DNA of 64,000 nucleotides from a virus: IMG/VR virus record IMGVR_UViG_3300044619_001118, positions 1 through 64,000 of that record; one strand, written 5' to 3'. Positions within the stretch are counted from its first letter, which is position 1. The number at the start of each line of letters is the position of its first letter. The translations under genes were made by a program, and so were the position numbers. Under the pieces are notes generated by a model that made no database searches, had not been told where the DNA came from, and saw only the letters and a program-made list of their open reading frames with translations. Of this stretch, positions 30,977 to 56,345 are shown piece by piece.

Positions 30977-31020
30977 CATCATACCATCATATTTATATTT
31001 ATTAGTAGAATGGAGTAAAT

Positions 31021-41539: not shown

Positions 41540-41551
41540 GTGGAGTAAATA

Positions 41552-41876: not shown

Positions 41877-42374
41877 ATGAACATAAAAGAATTCATACAG
41901 AAACTTAAAGAATCCGAAGATTATAAAAAGTTTAAAGGCGAAATGTCTGAAATGAGTGTGACAGGTGCCGTTGCTGGTTATGATACTCCAAAAGCATTTG
42001 CACCTTCTGAAAAGGAATTTGAGGCTCATAGTAAAGAAACAGCCGAAGTTTATGGATATACAGTTGTACCTAAACAGAAAAAGAAAAATTTCGAATCAAC
42101 ATATGTCCAAGCAATAAAGTCATTGACAGAGGCATCATACAAATCATATAAGACAGATGAAACACGCACTGTTAACGCAAAAATTAATCAGTCAATTAAA
42201 GAAATAAACCGTGCGATTTATGAAATTGAACGTGTTGTTAATCATGCTTCGAGATTAAAAACAGAAATGGCAGTTGACCAACGTACTCTTTGGTCATCTT
42301 CACATTCACGTCTTCATAAAATTGGTGAACGTTTAAATAGAATTGGTAAAAAAATAAACGAATTAGGTGCTTAA
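41877..42374 (+). CDS. Putative prohead core protein
   Basis: 165 aa; LxE-type sites (LKE, LTE) and coiled-coil C-terminus; just before the protease. Confidence 0.55.
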   Translation: MNIKEFIQKLKESEDYKKFKGEMSEMSVTGAVAGYDTPKAFAPSEKEFEAHSKETAEVYGYTVVPKQKKKNFESTYVQAIKSLTEASYKSYKTDETRTVNAKINQSIKEINRAIYEIERVVNHASRLKTEMAVDQRTLWSSSHSRLHKIGERLNRIGKKINELGA

Positions 42375-42375
42375 A

Positions 42376-43050
42376 ATGAAACAATTACTCATAGATACAA
42401 TACTTTTTAACGTTGACCCAAAACAACTAAACGAGTCTTCACGGGAAAACAATGGAAAGGTTATTGTAACTGGTGTTTTACAAAGAGCGGAAGCTAAAAA
42501 TCAAAATGGTCGTGTTTATCCAAAACAAATTTTGATGCGTGAAGTTACAAAGTATCAAAATAATCAAGTAAAAGAAAACAGAGCTCTCGGTGAACTTGAC
42601 CACCCAGATTCATCAGTTGTAAACCTCCGTAACGTTTCACATAATGTGTTGGAATGTTATTGGAAGGGAAATGATGTTATGGGTAAAGTTGAGATTTTAC
42701 CAACACCATCGGGTAACATTCTTAAAAACCTTCTTCAAGCCGGTATTCGTCTTGGTATCTCATCAAGAGGACTTGGTTCGGTAAAAGAGATAAATGAAAA
42801 CACAGTAGAAGTTCAAGATGATTTTGAATTAATTGGATGGGATTTTGTTTCGAATCCATCAACACAAGGTGCATTTATGTACCCAGCCGGTGGTGGTGAA
42901 GTTGTTGGTGAGGGTCTTATCAAAGAAGGTGTCAGTATGAACACTATTAAAAAAATTGACCCAAAAATCAAACGTATAAACGAGAATATAACAAATATCA
43001 TCTGTGAAATTGGTAATGTATGTGAATGTATATTCGATGGAGATAAATAA
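42376..43050 (+). CDS. Prohead protease (T4 gp21-like)
   Basis: NQNGRVYP, ALGELDHP, VSH, LGISSRGLGS, DFVSNPS; ATG 42376 preferred over GTG 42367. Confidence 0.93.
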   Translation: MKQLLIDTILFNVDPKQLNESSRENNGKVIVTGVLQRAEAKNQNGRVYPKQILMREVTKYQNNQVKENRALGELDHPDSSVVNLRNVSHNVLECYWKGNDVMGKVEILPTPSGNILKNLLQAGIRLGISSRGLGSVKEINENTVEVQDDFELIGWDFVSNPSTQGAFMYPAGGGEVVGEGLIKEGVSMNTIKKIDPKIKRINENITNIICEIGNVCECIFDGDK

Positions 43051-43667
43051 TGCCAGCAGTATCGCAACAACAGCAAAAAATTATGGGACTTGCTCTTGCT
43101 TATAAGAGAGGTCAAGTTCCTGCATCAAAAGTTAGTGCTCAAGTAAAGCAAATTGCAAAATCGATGACTGAAAAAGAACTTGAAAAATATGCCGGCACAG
43201 AACACAAAGGTCTTCCAAAGAAGGTCGGTGAAAACAAGAAAGCCATGACTGAACTTAAAAAGATGATTGCAAAGGCAGTAAACGAAGTTATCAAAGAAGG
43301 TATTTCACAAGACCCACCAAAAGACCCGATTCTAACACCAGAACAAAAGAAGAGATATATTGAATCGATTGCAAAATTCAATGAGTATGGTGATTCGATT
43401 TATCGTGGTGGTGATTTGAAAAAAGTTTACAAGGAAATTAAAGAAGCAGTTTCTTTTGCTTCAAAAAACATAGTCGAAGAATCAGGTGATTGGTTTGACC
43501 AAGTAACTCTCGGAAGACATTCTAAAAAACTATCAGAATCCCTTAAAATATTTGAAAAGACGATAACAGAGGCAATTAAATTACAACAACGTCTTGAATC
43601 GGTATATGAAGATATGGGACAAACTCTGAACAAGTATTACGAAATCAAAGATATTAAAAAGAAATAA
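43050..43667 (+). CDS. DUF3008-like N-terminal domain plus helical head-associated domain
   Basis: MPAVSQQQQKIMGLAL..KRG...SMTEKELEKYAGT.HKGLPKKV. Confidence 0.65.
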   Translation: MPAVSQQQQKIMGLALAYKRGQVPASKVSAQVKQIAKSMTEKELEKYAGTEHKGLPKKVGENKKAMTELKKMIAKAVNEVIKEGISQDPPKDPILTPEQKKRYIESIAKFNEYGDSIYRGGDLKKVYKEIKEAVSFASKNIVEESGDWFDQVTLGRHSKKLSESLKIFEKTITEAIKLQQRLESVYEDMGQTLNKYYEIKDIKKK

Positions 43668-43682
43668 AAAAGGAAAAAGGTT

Positions 43683-43910
43683 ATGGGTGATTATTACAGT
43701 GCTAATCCAAAGACGGCACACGTCAAGGTTAAAGGAAATGGAATGAATATCGACCTTATGTTAAAGATATTCAAAAGAAAGGTGAAGGAAAGTGGTATTC
43801 TCGAAGAGTATAAGAGTAGAACAGAATACATCAAACCTTCTGAAAAAAAGAAAGATAAACGAAACGCCTCTCGGAAGAGACAAAGAAAGCTTGACCGAGA
43901 ACAAGAATAA
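43683..43910 (+). CDS. rpsU: Phage-encoded ribosomal protein bS21
   Basis: V.V....NID.MLKIFKRKVKESGILEEYKSRTEYIKPSEKKK...RKR matches the bS21 pattern; 75 aa, basic. Confidence 0.88.
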   Translation: MGDYYSANPKTAHVKVKGNGMNIDLMLKIFKRKVKESGILEEYKSRTEYIKPSEKKKDKRNASRKRQRKLDREQE

Positions 43911-43924
43911 CTAACTCGGTTAAT

Positions 43925-45073
43925 ATGATACGACTAAAAAACATACTACTGGAAGAACCAAAATCGCCAAGTGAAGACCCCGATAAAATGCTTGTGAAGA
44001 ACAAGGAAAGCGGGAAGTCGTATTATATTAGTAAAGCAAGTTTCGACCCTTCGATTCACGAAAAACCAGAAGAAAAAAAGAAAAAGAAAAAAGAAGAACC
44101 TTCCACACCTAAAAAAGAAAAAGGTGGTGGTGGTGGTTTAATGGATAAATTAAAGGCCGAGAAGGAAAAATCTTCATCTGGTGAAGAAGAAGAAAAGCCG
44201 GAAGAGAAAAAAGAAACACCGTCTCAAAAGTTAGAAAAGAAACTCGGTTCTTTTGTCTTTGTTGATGAAAAAGAAAAAGAGGAAATTGCCGACGATGCTC
44301 GGAGTATGAGACCCGACCTCAAAGAAAAACTATTGAAATTCGATTTCACATCATTTTTCAGAGAGTATGATTCTTTAATGGACACACTCGGTGACCAACA
44401 GGATAAGAAAGATAACGAAGGTGCAAAAGAAACTGTTATCGCAATAAGAAAAGCTGCTAAGAGGATTCAAGGTGTTGCCATTGCAAAATTGGCAGCACTT
44501 TCTACATTCAAAAATGACCCCGAAGTAATAACTGCTTCAAAATATTATCATAATGATTCTACAAGTATAAATGAATTCTTACGCCAAGGTGGTGAAATAA
44601 ATTGGTCTTTGGAGGATTTGAAGAAGACATTAGATACACCAAATGCAAAAGAAAAATTTCCACTAAAATATAAGATGTATAATGTCCTAACTTTGGATAA
44701 TCATTTTAAAACAGATGGTGCTAAACTACAAAACGATACTGTTGTTTATCGTGGTGTAAAGGATGATATTTTGAAAAAATTTGTTGAATCTGGTGAGTGG
44801 GTTGATAATGGATTTGTTTCAACTTCACTTAATCCACTTATTGCCGAAGATTTTACAGATAGAAATTTGACAACGGGTAACAGAAAAGCAAGAACACCGA
44901 TATTCAAAATAAACTTAAAACGAGGAAACCCCGTACTTATGTTACCTTGTTCAGAAGATGAATTTTGTATTGAATCAGAAATAACACTTCCTCGTGGTTG
45001 TAAATTTACAATAACGGGTAAAGACGAAGAAAAGAACATTTACGATATATCAGTGGAGTTTCCAAATGCCTGA
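43925..45073 (+). CDS. ADP-ribosyltransferase, R-S-E class (VIP2/Alt/Mod-like)
   Basis: INEFLR, VVYRGV, GFVSTSL, ESEITLPRG (ExE catalytic loop); N-terminus MIRLKNILLEE followed by a charged linker. Confidence 0.88.
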   Translation: MIRLKNILLEEPKSPSEDPDKMLVKNKESGKSYYISKASFDPSIHEKPEEKKKKKKEEPSTPKKEKGGGGGLMDKLKAEKEKSSSGEEEEKPEEKKETPSQKLEKKLGSFVFVDEKEKEEIADDARSMRPDLKEKLLKFDFTSFFREYDSLMDTLGDQQDKKDNEGAKETVIAIRKAAKRIQGVAIAKLAALSTFKNDPEVITASKYYHNDSTSINEFLRQGGEINWSLEDLKKTLDTPNAKEKFPLKYKMYNVLTLDNHFKTDGAKLQNDTVVYRGVKDDILKKFVESGEWVDNGFVSTSLNPLIAEDFTDRNLTTGNRKARTPIFKINLKRGNPVLMLPCSEDEFCIESEITLPRGCKFTITGKDEEKNIYDISVEFPNA

Positions 45074-45239
45074 TAACAAACAAGAAGAAAAACCAAAACG
45101 TGTAGAAAGATTCATCTATTCAGAAGATGATGTTAATCACATTTTTAAGTTGGGAAAAACTGGTGGTGTATTTGATAAAGAAAAATCAAATATTTTACTA
45201 AAAAACTTAGTTCCAACCACAAAAAAATCGAATAAATAA
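45066..45239 (+). CDS. Unannotated 57-aa ORF overlapping the ART stop
   Basis: MPDNKQEEKPKRVERFIYSEDDVNHIFKLGKTGGVFDKEKSNILLKNLVPTTKKSNK*; GGAG at SD distance (gtggagtttccaaATG); below the track's length cutoff. Confidence 0.65.
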   Translation: MPDNKQEEKPKRVERFIYSEDDVNHIFKLGKTGGVFDKEKSNILLKNLVPTTKKSNK

Positions 45240-45263: not shown

Positions 45264-45347
45264 CAATACTCTATCTCTTATAGAGTCAATTATTATTTTT
45301 ACTGTTGATTAGAGTTCTTAATAACTTTAAAATTGTTGGAGATTTTT

Positions 45348-46358
45348 ATGACAGACCTATTGAAAGAAGCAATCGCAGATGCAAAGGCAGTACGTGAAGT
45401 CGCACTTGCTAATGCTAAGCTTGCTTTGGAAGAAGCTTTCACTCCACGTTTACAATCAATGATTGCATCTAAACTTTCAGAAGAAGCCGAAGAGGAAGAA
45501 ATGGAAGAAGGTGAATCACACGATGAAGAAACAATGGAAGAAGGAGACGAAGAAGAGGCACCTGAAATGGAAGAAGGTGAATCAGAAGAAGAAACGGTAG
45601 AAGAAGAATTTGGTGATGATTGGTTTGAAGAAGAGCCAGGTTCTATGGCAGAAGCCGAAGAAGAAGAAGAGTCACCAAAGATGGAAGAAGGTGAAGATGA
45701 AGAAGAGCCAATGGACGAAGATTTGATGGAAATTATCCGTCAACTCGAAGAAGATATGGATTCATCTGAAATCGGAACTGGCGATAACAAGCAACCATCA
45801 AAGTATGCTTCTGATGATTCAACAGAAGACAAGAAAGAAAAACTTGTTCAGATGGTTGAAGGTGAAGACGCTCCTGCTGAAGAAAAGCCAGCCGAAGTAG
45901 AAGAAGAGTTTGATATTCAAGAAATTCTCCGTGCTCTTCGTGAAGAAGAAGGTGAAGAAGAAAAGGTTGAAGAAGGTGAAGAAGGTGAAGAAGAAAAGGA
46001 AATGGCAGAATCTAAGCTTCAAGAAGCATATGCTGTTATTCAATTCCTTCGTGAAAAGATTAATGAAGTTAATCTTCTTAATTCAAAGCTTCTTTTCTCT
46101 AACAAGCTTTTCCGCTCACACGCACTTACTGAATCACAAAAGATGACGGTTATTGAGAATTTCGATCGTGCAAAGAGCTTACGTGAAGTCAAGTTGGTTT
46201 ATGCAACACTTGCTGAATCATTAAAGACATCAAAGGTTAAGCAGCTTAAAGAGTCATTTGCTAGCAAGCCAATTGCAAGCACACGTCCATCAAAGGCTAT
46301 TCTTAGTGAAGGCAATGAGATGGCATCAAGATTAAGAAAATTAGCAGGTTTAAAGTAA
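45348..46358 (+). CDS. Prohead scaffolding / core protein (gp22-like role)
   Basis: Highly acidic centre, coiled coils, ends RLRKLAGLK; immediately upstream of the capsid gene; ATG 45348 with GGAG. Confidence 0.8.
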   Translation: MTDLLKEAIADAKAVREVALANAKLALEEAFTPRLQSMIASKLSEEAEEEEMEEGESHDEETMEEGDEEEAPEMEEGESEEETVEEEFGDDWFEEEPGSMAEAEEEEESPKMEEGEDEEEPMDEDLMEIIRQLEEDMDSSEIGTGDNKQPSKYASDDSTEDKKEKLVQMVEGEDAPAEEKPAEVEEEFDIQEILRALREEEGEEEKVEEGEEGEEEKEMAESKLQEAYAVIQFLREKINEVNLLNSKLLFSNKLFRSHALTESQKMTVIENFDRAKSLREVKLVYATLAESLKTSKVKQLKESFASKPIASTRPSKAILSEGNEMASRLRKLAGLK

Positions 46359-46381
46359 CAATTTTTATTGGAGATATATAA

Positions 46382-48016
46382 ATGAGTATTCAACAACTTT
46401 TAGGTGCTTCTGCGAATCCGCACAAGCGTCTTATTGAAGAAAACCGTGGCACAGTTAAGAAGTGGGAAAAGACAGGACTTCTTGACGGCATCGGTAGCGA
46501 CTATGAAAAGAACTCGATTGCAGTTCTTCTCGAAAACCAAGCAAAGCAACTTATCGACGAATCATCACGTACAGGTACATCAGCAGGTTCAGAAGAATGG
46601 GCTGGCGTTGCTCTCCCACTCGTTCGTCGTATTTTCTCTGAAATCGCAGCAAAGGATTTCGTTTCTGTTCAACCTATGAACCTTCCTTCAGGTCTCGTGT
46701 TCTTCCTTGACTTCAAGTACGGAACAGCACAACCTGGTTTCACAACTGGTGCTGGTAAGGATTCACAAACTGACTCTGTATTCGGTGTAACTGGTAAAGA
46801 AGCTAAGGGTGTTGACCCATCTGGTGGTCTTTACGGTGCAGGTCGATTTGGTTATTCTATCAACGAAGCTCAAGTTGTTCTCTCAAAGGCAACTGCACTT
46901 TCTGCAACAGAATTCGTAACAGGTTCGGTAACACACGCAACACCAACACTTTGGCAGAATGACACACGTTTCCAAAACACATACTCAGCATCACTTGCTG
47001 CTGGAAACATCATGTCTATCACAGTTTCTTCTGGGTCTCTCTTAAACGAAGATGTTGAAGCAATTCGTGCATTCAAGGTTTCTGGTTCAACAATTCTTGG
47101 TTACTTCCCACAGTTCACATACGCAAATGCAAATGATTCACAAATCACATTTATCGTATCGGCTTCTGCTGCTCCTGCAACAGTTGGTGTTGCTTACGAA
47201 AAGCAACCAACATCAACAACTCGTGGTGACTTCGAAGACACAACAGGTGCAGACGTAAACATTCCAGAAATCAACCTTGAACTTCGTTCTGAGTCAATCG
47301 TGGCTAAGACACGCAAGTTGAAGGCTGTATGGACACCGGAATTCGCACAAGACTTGAACGCTTACCACTCAATCGATGCTGAAGCAGAATTGACATCGAT
47401 GCTTTCTGAGTACATTTCACAAGAAATTGACCTCGAAATCCTCGATATGCTTATCAAGAACGCTCAGACAACAGAAAGATGGTCAGCTCGTATCGGTCGC
47501 ACATATGATGGTAACACAAACACATTCGGTGACTACGCAACAAACCAAGCTGCAGCTTCGGCATTCAACCAACAAACATGGTTCCAAACACTTGGTACCA
47601 AGATTCAAAAGGTATCGAATGCTATCCACCAGAAGACACTTCGCGGTGGTGCTAACTTCCTCGTTTGTTCACCACAAGTTGCTACAATCCTTGAATCAAT
47701 TCCTGGATATGCAGTTGACGGTGAAGGTATGAAGTTTGCCATGGGTGTTCAGAAGGTTGGTCAACTTAACGGTCGTATCACAGTTTACAAGAACCCATAT
47801 ATGCTCGAAAATCAAATCCTTGTTGGTTTCCGTGGTAGCCAGTTCCTTGAAACAGGTGCGGTATATGCTCCTTACATCCCACTCGTGATGACACCGCTGG
47901 TCTATGACCCAACGAACTTCACACCACGTAAGGGTGTAATGACTCGCTACGCTAAGAAGATTGTCCGTCCAGAATTCTACGGTCTCATCCAAGTAGATTC
48001 TCTCGGTGACATATAA
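46382..48016 (+). CDS. Major capsid protein (T4 gp23-like)
   Basis: LLENQ, LPLVRR, VQPM..PSGLVFFL, AKTRKLKA.WT.E.AQDL.A.HS.DAE.EL, YAPYIPL, GVMTRYA. Confidence 0.96.
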   Translation: MSIQQLLGASANPHKRLIEENRGTVKKWEKTGLLDGIGSDYEKNSIAVLLENQAKQLIDESSRTGTSAGSEEWAGVALPLVRRIFSEIAAKDFVSVQPMNLPSGLVFFLDFKYGTAQPGFTTGAGKDSQTDSVFGVTGKEAKGVDPSGGLYGAGRFGYSINEAQVVLSKATALSATEFVTGSVTHATPTLWQNDTRFQNTYSASLAAGNIMSITVSSGSLLNEDVEAIRAFKVSGSTILGYFPQFTYANANDSQITFIVSASAAPATVGVAYEKQPTSTTRGDFEDTTGADVNIPEINLELRSESIVAKTRKLKAVWTPEFAQDLNAYHSIDAEAELTSMLSEYISQEIDLEILDMLIKNAQTTERWSARIGRTYDGNTNTFGDYATNQAAASAFNQQTWFQTLGTKIQKVSNAIHQKTLRGGANFLVCSPQVATILESIPGYAVDGEGMKFAMGVQKVGQLNGRITVYKNPYMLENQILVGFRGSQFLETGAVYAPYIPLVMTPLVYDPTNFTPRKGVMTRYAKKIVRPEFYGLIQVDSLGDI

Positions 48017-48951: not shown

Positions 48952-49545
48952 ATGGAACTAGCAATCAACTACATACAGTTAATCATATCGAGCACCGTTA
49001 CACTCATCGGTGTGTTTCTCTCGTGGTTCCTAAAATACAAGTATGGCGAATATAAGCACAAAAAGATTAATCGTGAAATTTCTCAATCAAAACTTGTCCA
49101 AACAATTATAGAACAACAACTTGATGAATATGGTGCCCAACGTGCCTTTATTTTACAGCGTCACAACGGTGGTAAATATGGCAGTGGTCGTTCTATGAAC
49201 AAACTATCCACAACATTTGAAGCACTAGAAGAAGGTGTGAGTACCGAATTTAAAGAATATCAAAATTTACCGATTTCACTTTACTCTAATTTTATAGATA
49301 CCGTTCAAAATGAACGTGCCATATTTCCAACTGTGGAATCCATAGATGATATTTTGACACGAGCATTTTTCATCCAACGAGGAACTAAATCAGCTATCGT
49401 TTATCCTATATTAAAAGGTGTAGAATTAATCGGTATAGTTGGTTTTGAGTGGACACATAAAGTAGAAAAGAATATAGAACAATCATATGTTCAGTATAAA
49501 CAAGGCGGCAAAGTTATAGGAGAAACCCTTTCCAAATTATTGTAG
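48952..49545 (+). CDS. Single-TM protein with GAF-like soluble domain (possible T4 T-type holin)
   Basis: One N-terminal TM, then RAFILQRHNGG...GTKSAIVYPI....LIGIVGFEW GAF-like pattern. Confidence 0.5.
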   Translation: MELAINYIQLIISSTVTLIGVFLSWFLKYKYGEYKHKKINREISQSKLVQTIIEQQLDEYGAQRAFILQRHNGGKYGSGRSMNKLSTTFEALEEGVSTEFKEYQNLPISLYSNFIDTVQNERAIFPTVESIDDILTRAFFIQRGTKSAIVYPILKGVELIGIVGFEWTHKVEKNIEQSYVQYKQGGKVIGETLSKLL

Positions 49546-49553
49546 GAGTTTTT

Positions 49554-50273
49554 ATGATAAATGAAAATACAGAAGAGTACATTGATGAAGAAGTCGGCGG
49601 TATCGAAGTTTCTGGTATAAAGAAAGGGCGGAAACAAATAAAAAACAAGATACATTTCAACTTATCGTTGAATGCAGAACAAAAAGAAGTAAAGGCAAAT
49701 ATACTCAGAGACACCATCTCTGTTTTAACAGGAAAAGCTGGCTCTGGTAAAACACTTCTTGCAACACAAATTGCTCTTGAACATCTATTCTATCGTGAAG
49801 TTGAAAGAATTATCATCACACGACCAACAGTTTCTAATGAAGATATTGGATTCTTACCGGGTGATATAAAGGAAAAGATGAATCCGTGGGTTGCTCCAAT
49901 CCATGCAAATATGTATATGTTATATGGTAAGCCAAAGATTGAAAAACTCATAAACGAAAACATAATTGAAATTGCACCGATTTCATTCCTTCGTGGTAGA
50001 ACATTCGTAAATGCGTGTGTTATCGTCGATGAAGCACAGAACGTAACGAAATCACAGATGGAGATGATTCTTTCTCGTCTCGGTACAAATTCGAAGATGT
50101 TAATTTGTGGTGATGTTACACAAACTGATTTAAAGAATAAGAAAGACAGTGGTTTCCCATATTTATTTAATATGGTCAACTCTGTTCCTGGTCTTGGTGT
50201 ATATGAATTAAAAACAAATCACCGCCATCCAATAGTTGACAATATATTGAATTATTTTGAAGAACAGAAATAA
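49554..50273 (+). CDS. phoH: PhoH-family ATPase
   Basis: GKAGSGKT, ITRP, GFLPG..KEK, FLRGRTF, IVDEAQN, GD.TQTD, HRHPIV. Confidence 0.95.
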   Translation: MINENTEEYIDEEVGGIEVSGIKKGRKQIKNKIHFNLSLNAEQKEVKANILRDTISVLTGKAGSGKTLLATQIALEHLFYREVERIIITRPTVSNEDIGFLPGDIKEKMNPWVAPIHANMYMLYGKPKIEKLINENIIEIAPISFLRGRTFVNACVIVDEAQNVTKSQMEMILSRLGTNSKMLICGDVTQTDLKNKKDSGFPYLFNMVNSVPGLGVYELKTNHRHPIVDNILNYFEEQK

Positions 50274-53289: not shown

Positions 53290-53327
53290 GAAGAGATAAT
53301 TACATCAATTTTTTTTGGAGATAAATA

Positions 53328-55766
53328 GTGGCTAATGAAAGAATTGTAAGTCCTGGTGTGTTTACGATAGAAAAGGACCTTTCATTCTTACCACAAGGTA
53401 TTGGACAAATTGGAGCTGCCCTCGTCGGACCAACGATGAAAGGCCCTGCATTTGTTCCTACTGTGGTTGAAGGGTACAACGATTTCGTAACTCAATTCGG
53501 TGGCACATATGAGCAATCATACTTGCCTTATACAGCAAAAAGTTATCTGAACAACGCCGGTAGTGCAACTATCGTTCGCGTACTAGGTTCAGGTGGATAT
53601 ACACTTAAACACCCCCTTGCACTCGTTGCAACAGGTAGTTGGGGTAAAAAGTTAATATCTGTTCTTCACCCAACATTTGTTGTTTCAAGTGATGATTCAA
53701 CATCATTGTTTGCACAATCAACATTGGGTTCTAACAATAGTGGTTCGTTTGTTCTTACAGTTTCTGGTGCTTTTGCAACAGATACATCGGCATTTACAAA
53801 CGCAATAAATGAAAACGGAATACCATACAGTGCTTCTATTAATCCAGAATCAACTGCATTCGTTGGTGACCTTTATGGATATAACCCATACGGCACACAC
53901 GCTGTTTACAACTATGTAAACTTCAAATGGCAGGCATCTGCTTCACTTGCTTCTGACGGTGCAACAAGAATATTGATTGAAACTGGTTCAGCATCATCGC
54001 CATGGGATTTCAGTGATGATTATCTCGAAGCATATACTCCGTATGTGACTTCACAAAAAGTCGGTGGATTGGCAACAAATCTCTTCCGTTTTGCAACACT
54101 TTCACACGGTATTCACGCTAACTATGAAGTTAAAGTCGGTATCGCAAACATTCGTCCAGCTGGCACAATCGCTGGTTCTGAATACGGTGACTTTGATGTT
54201 GTAATTCGTTATGTAGACCAATCAAAGGTTCCACAAACACCATTCACAACAGAAGACGATGACCTTCGTCCAAATGTAGTAGAGCAGTTCAAGGTTAACC
54301 TTGACCCTAACTCTCCAAAGTATATCTCCCGTGTTATCGGCGATAGATATATCACAGTAACATCTGAAGGTAAAGTTGTTGTAAACGGTGATTATTCGAA
54401 CAAGTCAAAGTATGTCCGTGTTGAAGTAACGGACGCAGTTAATAACGGTGGTATTTCACCAACATTGGTTCCTTTCGGATTCCGTGCACCGGTATCTCCA
54501 ATTCCAATCGGATTTACTGCACCTCCTGCGGCATCTTATGTTGCTTCTCAAACAGCTGGTGGTGCTTATAATCGTCGAGTATATTGGGGATTCAGCTATG
54601 ATTTCTCAAATACAGACAACTTCAACTACCTCCGTCCACTTCCAGTATCTGTAAATCAAACAACTGGTTCAAATGTTGACTTCTATCTTGGCGATTACAA
54701 TCAACCAGCTGGTGCAAACTTCCCAAGTTCTGCTGGCGGATATAGCTCTTCGATTGACTTAACAACAAATACTGCACTTGACACACGTAAGTTTATGATT
54801 CCGTTCCAAGGCGGATTTGATGGACACAAGCCACATCTTCAAAAGAAGACAGGTACATACATCGAAGCTGGTAACACACAAGGTTTTGATATTTCTTCAA
54901 CAGGCGCTGATGGTTATACATCATATAAGAAGGGTCTTGACGCAATATCTAACTCTGATGAATTTGACATCAACATGATTGTAACTCCTGGTGTTCTTCA
55001 CTCGTTGCACTCACCAATCACAACATACGCAAAGGATGTTTGTGAAGACCGTGGTGACGCTTTCTATGTGATGGACGGTAACGCTATCGCTGACAATATC
55101 GCAACAGCTGTTTCAACTGTTGAAGGTCTTGACACAAACTATGCGGCTACATACTATCCGTGGGTTAAGATTCTTGACTTCGATAGAAACAAGCCAATTT
55201 GGGTTCCACCGTCTGTTGTTCTTCCGGGTGTTATTGCATTCAACGACCGTGTTTCTGCTGAATGGTTCGCTCCTGCTGGTCTGAACCGTGGTGGTCTCAC
55301 AGAAGTTCTTGAAGTTAAGACACGTCTTACACACTCAGAGCGTGACACACTTTATGAAGGTCGTATCAACCCAATCGCAGTATTCCCATCAACAGGAGTA
55401 TGTGTATGGGGTCAGAAGACACTTCAAGGTCGTCCATCTGCTCTTGACCGTATCAACGTCCGTCGTCTCTTGATTGCAGCTAAGAAGTTCATCGCTTCGT
55501 CTACACGTTACCTTGTATTCGAACAAAATACAACACAAACACGTACACGATTCCTGAACATCGTAACTCCTTACTTGGAGTCGATTCAACAACGTCAAGG
55601 TTTGTATGCATTCCGTGTTATCATGGATGAGTCAAACAATACACCTGACATCATCGACCGTAACATTCTTTATGGTCAATTGTTCTTACAACCTGCGAAG
55701 ACTGCTGAATTCATCATTCTTGACTTCAACATTCAATCAACAGGTGCGGCATTCCCAGGTGCTTAA
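53328..55766 (+). CDS. Contractile tail sheath (gp18-like)
   Basis: SPGVFTIEKDLS, WFAPAGLNRG, LYEGRINPI, WGQKTL, DRINVRRL, P.KTAEFI.LDF; GTG start with GGAG. Confidence 0.95.
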   Translation: MANERIVSPGVFTIEKDLSFLPQGIGQIGAALVGPTMKGPAFVPTVVEGYNDFVTQFGGTYEQSYLPYTAKSYLNNAGSATIVRVLGSGGYTLKHPLALVATGSWGKKLISVLHPTFVVSSDDSTSLFAQSTLGSNNSGSFVLTVSGAFATDTSAFTNAINENGIPYSASINPESTAFVGDLYGYNPYGTHAVYNYVNFKWQASASLASDGATRILIETGSASSPWDFSDDYLEAYTPYVTSQKVGGLATNLFRFATLSHGIHANYEVKVGIANIRPAGTIAGSEYGDFDVVIRYVDQSKVPQTPFTTEDDDLRPNVVEQFKVNLDPNSPKYISRVIGDRYITVTSEGKVVVNGDYSNKSKYVRVEVTDAVNNGGISPTLVPFGFRAPVSPIPIGFTAPPAASYVASQTAGGAYNRRVYWGFSYDFSNTDNFNYLRPLPVSVNQTTGSNVDFYLGDYNQPAGANFPSSAGGYSSSIDLTTNTALDTRKFMIPFQGGFDGHKPHLQKKTGTYIEAGNTQGFDISSTGADGYTSYKKGLDAISNSDEFDINMIVTPGVLHSLHSPITTYAKDVCEDRGDAFYVMDGNAIADNIATAVSTVEGLDTNYAATYYPWVKILDFDRNKPIWVPPSVVLPGVIAFNDRVSAEWFAPAGLNRGGLTEVLEVKTRLTHSERDTLYEGRINPIAVFPSTGVCVWGQKTLQGRPSALDRINVRRLLIAAKKFIASSTRYLVFEQNTTQTRTRFLNIVTPYLESIQQRQGLYAFRVIMDESNNTPDIIDRNILYGQLFLQPAKTAEFIILDFNIQSTGAAFPGA

Positions 55767-55808: not shown

Positions 55809-55856
55809 AAAAGCATCATATTTATATGAAAGAGATTTTTAAACTTGGAGAAATAA

Positions 55857-56345
55857 ATGGCTGAATTACTGGATCCTACCGAAGTATTTTTTACCCCATA
55901 TGAACCGAAACTTGCTAACCGGTTTATTATGTACATCGAAGGTGTTCCTGCTTATCTCATCAAAGGTGCAAGTAGACCAAACATTAACTTTAACCCTATC
56001 ACACTTGACCACATCAATGTGAAGCGTAAGGTTAAGGGTAAAGGTGAATGGCAGGATGTCACTATCAAGCTATATGACCCAATCGTTCCATCAGCTGCAC
56101 AGGCAGTCATGGAGTGGGTTCGTCTATCACACGAGTCTGTAACAGGTCGTGATGGTTATTCTGACTTCTATAAGAAGGACATTACATTCAACGTTCTTGG
56201 TCCAGTTGGTGACAAGGTTGAAGAATGGACTTTGAAGGGTGCGTTTATCACAGCAACAACATTTGGTGATATGGATTGGTCAACAGATAACTTTGTTGAA
56301 ATTTCCCTCACACTTGCTTACGATTACGCAATCCTCCAATACTAA
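55857..56345 (+). CDS. Tail tube protein (gp19-like)
   Basis: EPK..NRF, W..VTI.LYDPI, MEW.R, YKKDI....LGPVG..VEEW.L.GAF, L.YDYA; directly after the sheath. Confidence 0.9.
   Translation: MAELLDPTEVFFTPYEPKLANRFIMYIEGVPAYLIKGASRPNINFNPITLDHINVKRKVKGKGEWQDVTIKLYDPIVPSAAQAVMEWVRLSHESVTGRDGYSDFYKKDITFNVLGPVGDKVEEWTLKGAFITATTFGDMDWSTDNFVEISLTLAYDYAILQY

Follow-up and report, generated by a model that had tools for sequence, protein, structure and literature searches.

Introduction

In Flavobacterium johnsoniae the anti-Shine–Dalgarno (anti-SD) sequence of the ribosome is buried by three ribosomal proteins, bS21, bS18 and bS6 (PMC7797042, PMC9976891). Ribosomes of this species that are without bS21, or that carry a C-terminally truncated or Y54A form of it, favour mRNAs led by a Shine–Dalgarno (SD) sequence (Jha et al. 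2021, PMC7797042; McNutt et al. 2023, PMC9976891). With a truncated or mutated bS21 C-terminus, SD-led reporters go up 2-5 fold and SD-less initiation goes down (PMC9976891). In this work we analyse a bS21 gene that is carried by a virus. It lies at positions 43683-43910 of a stretch of 64,000 nucleotides, hereafter the window, which is the first 64 kb of the 74,283-bp IMG/VR record IMGVR_UViG_3300044619_001118 (CheckV completeness 44%, GC 36.5%). Our comparisons support a link between phage bS21 and SD-bearing phage genes across the relatives of this phage. Such a co-occurrence suggests, but does not prove, that the ribosomes of the host are re-tuned.

Among the ribosomal proteins encoded by phages, bS21 is the commonest. 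Freshwater Bacteroidetes myophages with bS21 were described by Chen et al. (2022, ISME Commun 2:31, PMC9723584), who reported an aromatic residue at the Tyr54 position in all 61 phage bS21 proteins and concluded that phage bS21 blocks the anti-SD as the host protein does. Our locus resembles theirs in that bS21 lies among the terminase, portal, prohead protease and capsid genes, in its origin from freshwater lakes, and in the late ribosome substitution that has been proposed. It differs in having Lys or Arg at the Tyr54 position and a tail without an aromatic residue. The SD sites of phage genes, and their co-occurrence with bS21, are outside the scope of that study (PMC9723584). An exchange of bS21 during infection was speculated upon by McNutt et al. 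(PMC9976891), without sequence analysis. A further example is the Pelagibacter phage HTVC008M, with a bS21 that, according to McNutt et al. (PMC9976891, citing Mizuno et al. 2019), is able to enter E. coli ribosomes. As here, the bS21 is found in a T4-like phage; the host phylum differs, and the account given there reports no link to SD. Our literature search returned no paper that links phage bS21 to SD sites, and none on Mel-JY01, a cultured relative of our phage.

The comparison with F. johnsoniae is one of analogy. The protein family is the same, the ribosomal site would be the same, and the same effect is proposed here for phage bS21. That said, the F. johnsoniae effect follows from loss or mutation of the host bS21, and rpsU is autoregulated there via an extended SD, whereas here a foreign bS21 would act on short GGAG sites, which lead many genes of the phage. 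A strong SD is also missing before the phage rpsU, unlike that of F. johnsoniae. An SD link would give phage bS21 a definite function, namely switching the mRNA preference of SD-ignoring ribosomes. This function is open to bench tests, for which F. johnsoniae offers ready-made reporters, mutant strains and in vitro assays (PMC9976891). If the link holds, nature would offer an example of a virus that makes specialised ribosomes, and the view that phage bS21 blocks the anti-SD like that of the host would have to be revised.

Mel-JY01 (PP395634) is the closest cultured relative, with 73% identity in the capsid protein and 65% in a syntenic rpsU. The next capsid relatives are the Flavobacterium phages vB_FspM_immuto (MW353175-7, hereafter immuto) at 55% and the Rhodothermus phage RM378 at 37%. 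A complete, syntenic relative of 253 kb, that we label G001, shares 76% identity in the capsid and 79% in bS21. When a phage collection was searched with the window bS21 by tblastn, only Mel-JY01 matched. Like the window phage, Mel-JY01 has GGAG before its scaffold, capsid, sheath and tube genes. Immuto has the same order of genes in the head module, but no bS21 in that module or in the 70 kb examined, no SDs, and A-rich leaders. An open reading frame (ORF) of 228 nt after the immuto protease was considered as a bS21 and rejected.

The bS21 gene and its product

The gene in question is the following:

43683..43910, + strand, bS21 gene (rpsU homologue), 75 amino acids; matches Pfam PF01165 at 53.8 bits and bS21 chains in the PDB

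Judged by its sequence, the product is a true bS21. It matches the Pfam family PF01165 (Ribosomal_S21) with an E-value of 1.5e-14 and 53.8 bits, against a cut-off of 27, and residues 18-68 align onto profile positions 5-55 of 55. A phmmer search of the PDB matched 31 bS21 chains, the best of which is 7unr_u (E 7.6e-7, residues 14-74). The best-aligned bS21 chains of solved ribosomes are the gammaproteobacterial ones, over phage residues 14-74. The protein is small and basic and carries the conserved FKR and KPS motifs of bS21, as LKIFKRKVKESG and YIKPS respectively.

The protein also has an N-terminal extension of 11 amino acids and a basic tail, KPSEKKKDKRNASRKRQRKLDREQE. We found 107 close homologues, encoded by metagenomic contigs that reach 253 kb in length, and 52 IMG/VR loci with a homologue. 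The close homologues all have the same type of tail, KPS(E/K)KKxDKxNA(S/A)xKRQRKLD, which is kept across the whole family. No aromatic residue follows Tyr49 of YIKPS, either in the phage bS21 or in its family of close homologues. Tyr54, which lies 12 residues after the Ser of KPS and stacks on A1534 in Bacteroidia-type bS21, is replaced by Lys65. The original prediction had Lys there too, and an ungapped alignment with the bS21 of F. johnsoniae (7jil_z) bears it out: residues 19-59 of the query align onto residues 8-48 of the chain, and the extension of the match places Lys65 opposite Tyr54. The Tyr of a distant bS21, P0133 (...KASY...), aligns with the same Lys65. A likeness to the C-terminus of F. 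johnsoniae bS21 was not found, the 7jil_z alignment ending at chain residue 48 whereas the gammaproteobacterial chains align to the end.

Shine–Dalgarno sites in the window

The original prediction listed GGAG at SD distance before the capsid, scaffold, sheath, tube and PhoH genes and before 13 further starts, and all of these sites were found. GGAG (or AGGAG, GGAGG or GAGGAG) ends 3-9 nt upstream of every one of them, typically in the form GGAG(A/T)AAATA-ATG. The starts are 13357, 20670, 20928, 22708, 31021, 31474, 34376, 36735, 41552, 43050, 45066, 48133 and 57585, together with scaffold 45348, capsid 46382, PhoH 49554, sheath 53328 (GTG) and tube 55857. GGAG was also said to be missing before bS21 and the first GT genes. 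In the leaders that were inspected it is absent from that of bS21 (AAAGAAATAAAAAAGGAAAAAGGTT) and from those of the first large genes (340/547, 3562, 7258/7318 and 9379). The individual features are:

43658..43682, + strand, bS21 leader; A-rich, contains AAGGAAAAAGG, no GGAG
31012..31015, + strand, GGAG, 5 nt before gene 31021
41542..41545, + strand, GGAG, 6 nt before head-module gene 41552
43039..43042, + strand, GGAG, 7 nt before the ATG of the DUF3008 gene
45338..45341, + strand, GGAG, 6 nt before ATG 45348, presumed scaffold
46370..46373, + strand, GGAG, 8 nt before the capsid gene; same site in Mel-JY01
49544..49548, + strand, AGGAG, 5 nt before PhoH
53317..53320, + strand, GGAG, 7 nt before the sheath GTG; GTG and GGAG kept in Mel-JY01
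55847..55850, + strand, GGAG, 6 nt before the tube gene
13350, 20657, 20918, 22694, 31464, 34365, 36725, 45055, 48121 and 57575, + strand, further GGAG sites

These sites are far more frequent than expected by chance. There are 136 GGAGs on the + strand, and the chance of finding one at -16 to -4 of a random + position is P = 0.019, that is 1.2 for the 61 starts. By automatic count 15 of the 61 starts are led by GGAG, and by eye 18. G makes up 46-47% at positions -10 and -9 of the window starts. The fraction of leaders that pair with the anti-SD at a free energy (dG) of -4 or below, hereafter the paired fraction, is 0.54 in the contig and 0.16 at control positions. A special TGGAG motif was considered and rejected, as a T before GGAG is equally common genome-wide (63/136) and the bias is absent in G001. 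The sheath gene starts with GTG, led by GGAG-N7, both in the window (53328) and in its Mel-JY01 counterpart, and the first in-frame ATG is 36 codons downstream; this unusual start appears to be conserved between the two phages.

The leader of bS21 itself is of another kind. In 20 related loci none of the bS21 leaders has GGAG (0/20), compared with 23% of the neighbouring genes, and A makes up 60-75% at -18 to -7. Since it has no GGAG, the bS21 leader would be readable by unmodified ribosomes. An extended strong SD before the gene itself, which is a mark of autoregulation, is likewise not seen before phage bS21. For cellular genes we drew 60 genomes evenly from the GTDB phylum Bacteroidota and sampled 40 rpsU loci from them, each 20 kb long; GGAGGTG-like sites precede nearly all the sampled rpsU genes, in every bS21 group.

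bS21 and Shine–Dalgarno use across related phages

We collected 80 IMG/VR loci around relatives of the capsid gene (57-87% identity) and scored bS21 and SD-likeness in each with one simple gene caller. The comparison set consists of the 58 loci in which 4.5 kb or more of sequence precedes the capsid gene, 41 with bS21 and 17 without. In the loci with bS21, 186 of 833 genes are led by GGAG, and in those without just 7 of 315. The median G content at -12 to -7 is 0.32 (range 0.17-0.44) with bS21 and 0.10 (0.07-0.19) without, and the median paired fraction is 0.53 versus 0.15, the latter at or below control. The leaders of the bS21-less loci are A-rich. The difference between the two groups has a Mann-Whitney p of 3e-9, in a test that ignores the kinship of the loci.

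Kinship was considered by means of a capsid tree built with FastTree. At least three changes of the bS21 label are needed on this tree, the bS21-less clades, which include the confirmed Flavobacterium phage immuto, being nested among carriers. In about 3 of 3 independent pairs SD-richness shifts in the same direction as bS21. Of the bS21 carriers, L090, L093 and L151 are the least SD-rich, and they are sisters of bS21-less clades.

Whole genomes give a similar picture. G009, a relative without bS21, has no GGAG-led gene among 132, and both it and immuto are SD-depleted below control and have A-rich leaders. Mel-JY01, G001, G006 and G010 are SD-rich throughout the genome. In G005 and G008, which are complete and have terminal repeats, SDs are confined to the late regions (0.47-0.56, versus 0.07-0.33 elsewhere), and the early leaders resemble those of Bacteroidia. 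To this set the window contributes a Tyr-less subclade, abundant in lakes, in which SD-like motifs extend to early genes.

Host of the phage

The type of promoter is informative about the host. In Bacteroidota the sigma-A promoter has TTG at -33 and TAnnTTTG at -7, with a TAnnTTGY variant, and a flavobacterial consensus has been described (PMC9723704). Counts of promoter hexamers over whole sequences were uninformative, and became informative once restricted to intergenic DNA. In this way 21 intergenic promoters were found in Mel-JY01, of the form AAAAAAAG(T/A)(T/C)CTTGCAT-N-(TTT)CGTAnnTTTGTA, about 11-fold enriched over coding DNA. Their positions include 62987, 63070, 68747, 98308, 140620, 143124 and 147231, and an A-tract lies upstream. 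The general form, TTG-N19-TAnnTTT(G/A), is found in Mel-JY01, G001, G005, G008, G009, G010 and immuto, the architecture in immuto being AAAAAGGCTTGC-N19-CGTATATTTA. One such promoter is found in our contig at ~71.9 kb, outside the window.

From the promoter type and the phage relatives, the host phylum is likely to be Bacteroidota, and the class could be either Bacteroidia or Ignavibacteria-like. A leader composition that is SD-rich or A-rich may, together with the promoter type, be an aid to assigning hosts to Bacteroidota phages. Mel-JY01 also has a Fib_succ_major gene, a family that among 14 control genomes was matched only by Bacteroides. Homologues of this gene are almost all phage-like, the only named cellular match being from Saprospiraceae at 28% identity.

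A metagenome-assembled genome (MAG) of Flavobacteriales, NAT55, contains two contigs (C35 and C59) of a related bS21 phage with a paired fraction of 0.77, and has its own rpsU on a third (C58). That these contigs fall in such a bin hints, if weakly, that a phage with SD-led genes has a Flavobacteriales host.

Other routes to the host gave little. A search of representatives for the nearest cellular bS21 returned metagenomic proteins only, and a contig scan returned one phage-like contig in a Flavobacteriales MAG. The taxa that a protein atlas gave for the phage MetK were uninformative. When MetK was compared with 60 Bacteroidota genomes, it aligned as a single piece with those of the Tyr type and of group C and as two pieces with the others, at similar total scores, giving no host signal. 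Searching 20 kb of the window against 400 Bacteroidota genomes for matches like those of clustered regularly interspaced short palindromic repeats (CRISPR) found only PhoH homology and a few matches of 25-27 nt, with no repeats nearby. Neither nblA nor psbA is present in Mel-JY01, G000, G001 or G002, although the Microcystis phage Ma-LMM01 has nblA; such an absence alone proves little.

Proposed mechanism and alternatives

The reading that we prefer, tentatively and with our own opinion almost evenly divided, is that the bS21 of this phage takes the bS21 site without sealing the anti-SD pocket and so favours GGAG-led phage messages. It would be a functional protein, produced along with the head proteins in a T4-like myophage of fresh water that has promoters of the Bacteroidota type. 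It would occupy the bS21 site on host 30S subunits and, unlike the host bS21/bS18/bS6 pocket in Bacteroidia, would fail to help bury the 3′ tail of the 16S rRNA. With the anti-SD exposed, GGAG-led phage mRNAs, chiefly those of the abundant virion genes, would be initiated ahead of the SD-less mRNAs of the host. Here we infer the incorporation into ribosomes, the release of the anti-SD and the SD-blind host ribosome. No phage bS18 or bS6 was found in these phages, so bS21 would be the only pocket protein that they supply.

A broader version is possible, although we lean somewhat against it. Phage bS21 would be a ribosome-specificity factor, and this T4-like lineage would have re-introduced SDs to outcompete the SD-less mRNAs of Bacteroidia, with SDs spreading to the early genes in our own subclade. 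Early-gene SDs would need bS21 from the start of infection. This might be provided by delivery in the capsid, beside the ADP-ribosyltransferase that is encoded next to bS21, or by the natural pool of bS21-free ribosomes in the host.

A number of observations weigh against the preferred reading, and we set these out here along with the alternatives. One is that there are just three independent transitions on the tree, so a sign test cannot reach significance. With so few, the association of bS21 with SDs may derive from shared ancestry, in which case bS21 would counter a translation-stalling defence or act from the virion, and SDs would be an unrelated trait of the lineage. Other roles, including counter-defence and packaging, have been proposed by Chen et al. 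and McNutt et al., and bS21 adjoins a probable packaged ADP-ribosyltransferase. We consider this explanation unlikely, given that all three transitions run in the same direction and that SD levels are intermediate beside the bS21-less clades. The depletion of SDs below control in the bS21-less phages also points to active selection tied to the translation system.

A second observation concerns the recorded host of the only cultured relative, the host field of PP395634 reading Microcystis elabens. With a cyanobacterial host the SDs would be the moderate SD use of cyanobacteria and bS21 a generic accessory gene. The overall SD-likeness of Mel-JY01 (0.41 versus 0.15) equals that of Ma-LMM01, a bona fide Microcystis phage (0.41 versus 0.21). 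We find such a host very improbable. The 21 promoters of Mel-JY01 are of the Bacteroidota form AAAAAAAGTTCTTGCAT-N-CGTAnnTTTGTA, with the architecture seen in a Flavobacterium phage, the same genome has Fib_succ_major, the complete genomes have no nblA or psbA, and by capsid the nearest cultured relatives are phages of Flavobacterium and Rhodothermus. The recorded host is probably wrong, a Bacteroidota bacterium of the non-axenic culture being the more likely one. Mel-JY01 is a usable phage for tests, with a doubtful host on record.

Cellular bS21 genes provide further points. Among the 40 loci described above, genomes with Tyr-type bS21 (Bacteroidia, e.g. KAAYIQ) are SD-depleted, at 0.09 versus a control of 0.19 and a G content of 0.12, and their leaders are A-rich at -14 to -10, with A at -3 in 46%. 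However, 12 genomes with Tyr-less KAIRR or KAKRR tails do use SDs (0.39 versus 0.24, G 0.30, GGAG before 36/259). In this group TTG-N18-20-TAnnTTTG is enriched 6.3-fold in intergenic DNA, and one member (L208) belongs to Ignavibacteriales. The window bS21 scores best against the KAIRR group, at 52 bits and 46-51% identity, versus 42 bits and 33% for the Tyr type.

Early genes add to these points. In the small-gene region of Mel-JY01 (98-150 kb), which is transcribed from Bacteroidota-type promoters, there is a sharp G peak of 29-38% at -11 to -8, mostly of AGGA type, and the paired fraction is 0.31 versus a control of 0.15. In the small-gene clusters of G001 (100-180 kb) the paired fraction is 0.35-0.54 versus 0.20. 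Early-type genes thus have SD-like leaders in both complete genomes of our own subclade, yet bS21 sits in a late head operon.

It may be, then, that the host itself uses SDs. It would be an SD-competent member of Bacteroidota, for example an Ignavibacteria-like bacterium, with a Tyr-less bS21, and the SDs of the phage would mirror those of the host. The phage bS21 would be a host-like copy with another role, for instance to supplement the bS21 supply when late synthesis is massive. This would explain the SDs on all classes of gene, including the early-type and late genes of Mel-JY01 and G001, as well as the promoter type and the tail, without any switch. The KAIRR/KAKRR-tailed Bacteroidota use SDs, share the promoter type and hold the nearest cellular bS21, and it is usual for phages to have stronger SDs on their late genes. 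We regard an SD-using host as the main competitor of the preferred reading and as somewhat less probable. With bS21-less sisters that are SD-depleted, it needs at least three class-level host jumps among phages with ~60% capsid identity. Nor does it account for phages such as G010 and L088-L101, which are SD-rich with a bS21 of the Bacteroidia (Tyr) type, or for the late-only SDs of G005 and G008. The early genes have A at -3 (62% in Mel-JY01 and 44% in G001) as in Bacteroidia, a peak that is absent in the SD-using groups. Finally, the phage is common in lake water, in at least 13 studies, and its cultured relative comes from an aerobic Microcystis culture. In both settings Bacteroidia dominate rather than Ignavibacteria. 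There is nevertheless a class of Bacteroidota that uses SDs and shares the promoter type, and it must be excluded before a switch is claimed.

The last observation of this kind concerns Tyr54, the change of which to Lys the original prediction had taken as the cause of the switch. In about 11 loci the twelfth residue after the Ser of KPS is aromatic (NAKY, RAKY, KARY etc.), and these are as SD-rich as the 36 in which it is not. The median G is 0.28-0.33 in aromatic-tail loci versus 0.31 in the others, and the paired fraction 0.50 versus 0.53. The Tyr54 equivalent does not track SD use, which leaves us with no residue-level mechanism in hand. The missing Tyr54 is compatible with the preferred mechanism, but it is not the deciding feature.

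The proposed switch towards late genes fares partly better. Strict GGAG is late-biased (~24% versus 4% in Mel-JY01, and 26% versus 15% in G001), and SDs are late-only in G005 and G008. Against this stands the SD-like peak of early-type genes in Mel-JY01 and G001, and a late bias of strict GGAG is ordinary for highly expressed genes. Equal GGAG-richness of early genes had been named at the outset as a finding that would speak against the idea, and the early-gene SDs of our own subclade come close to it. What stands of the idea that phage bS21 frees the anti-SD is the link between bS21 and SDs, the Bacteroidota promoters and the bS21 leader without GGAG; the Tyr-to-Lys cause and the strictly late switch do not.

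The locus and its neighbours

The gene content of the window is that of the structural half of a T4-like myophage, and nearly all genes of the record are on the + strand. Near-identical DNA is found in lake-water or freshwater metagenomes, from at least 13 studies. The position of bS21 inside the head operon, as first suggested, is confirmed: it lies between the prohead protease and capsid genes and is co-located with TerL (37052), portal (38774), protease (42367) and capsid (46382). The genes of the region are:

37052, + strand, large terminase (TerL), head module
38774, + strand, portal, gp20-type, head module
42367..43050, + strand, prohead core protease (Peptidase_S77, Pfam E 5e-34); upstream neighbour in the same operon-like block
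43050-43667, + strand, gene for a DUF3008 protein (Pfam DUF3008)
43925..45073, + strand, ADP-ribosyltransferase-like gene (Pfam PF03496, E 4e-10), directly 3′ of bS21; own leader without GGAG
45348, + strand, presumed scaffold gene, by synteny with Mel-JY01 and G001
46382-48016, + strand, major capsid gene, gp23-type (Pfam Gp23, E 3e-80)
49554-50273, + strand, PhoH, by the Mel-JY01 annotation
53328-55766, + strand, tail sheath, GTG start, structural module
55857-56345, + strand, tail tube, structural module

The ADP-ribosyltransferase-like gene begins 14 nt after bS21. The N-terminus of its product, MIRLKNILLEE, is similar to the capsid-targeting leader of T4 with an LxE protease site. If the ADP-ribosyltransferase is packaged, bS21 might be packaged too. 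A 57-amino-acid ORF with a GGAG of its own overlaps the end of this gene (region 43925-45239).

An internal promoter for bS21 was looked for, and no TTG-N19-TAnnTTTG is present just upstream of the gene. In one library of a freshwater metatranscriptome two contigs match exactly, only at the scaffold-capsid junction (45977-46467) and not on bS21, and such contigs show no expression levels. These matches hint weakly at activity of the phage in situ.

Two further observations concern short motifs. The hexamers TATTTA, TTTATA and ATTTAT are enriched 5-9 fold in the intergenic DNA of the window, for example upstream of 22708, 23077 and 41552. Together they give the motif TATTTATA(A/G), and in immuto the structural genes are preceded by CTATTTATAA. 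We regard these motifs as a candidate late-promoter element that the phages share, reminiscent of the TATAAATA of T4. The heptamer TTTATAA occurs 14 and 19 times on the two strands of the window contig, versus 12 expected, with no sign of avoidance. In Mel-JY01 one strand has no copy of it and the other a single one, versus ~87 expected from the dinucleotide content, a scarcity that may reflect avoidance of a restriction site containing TTATAA.

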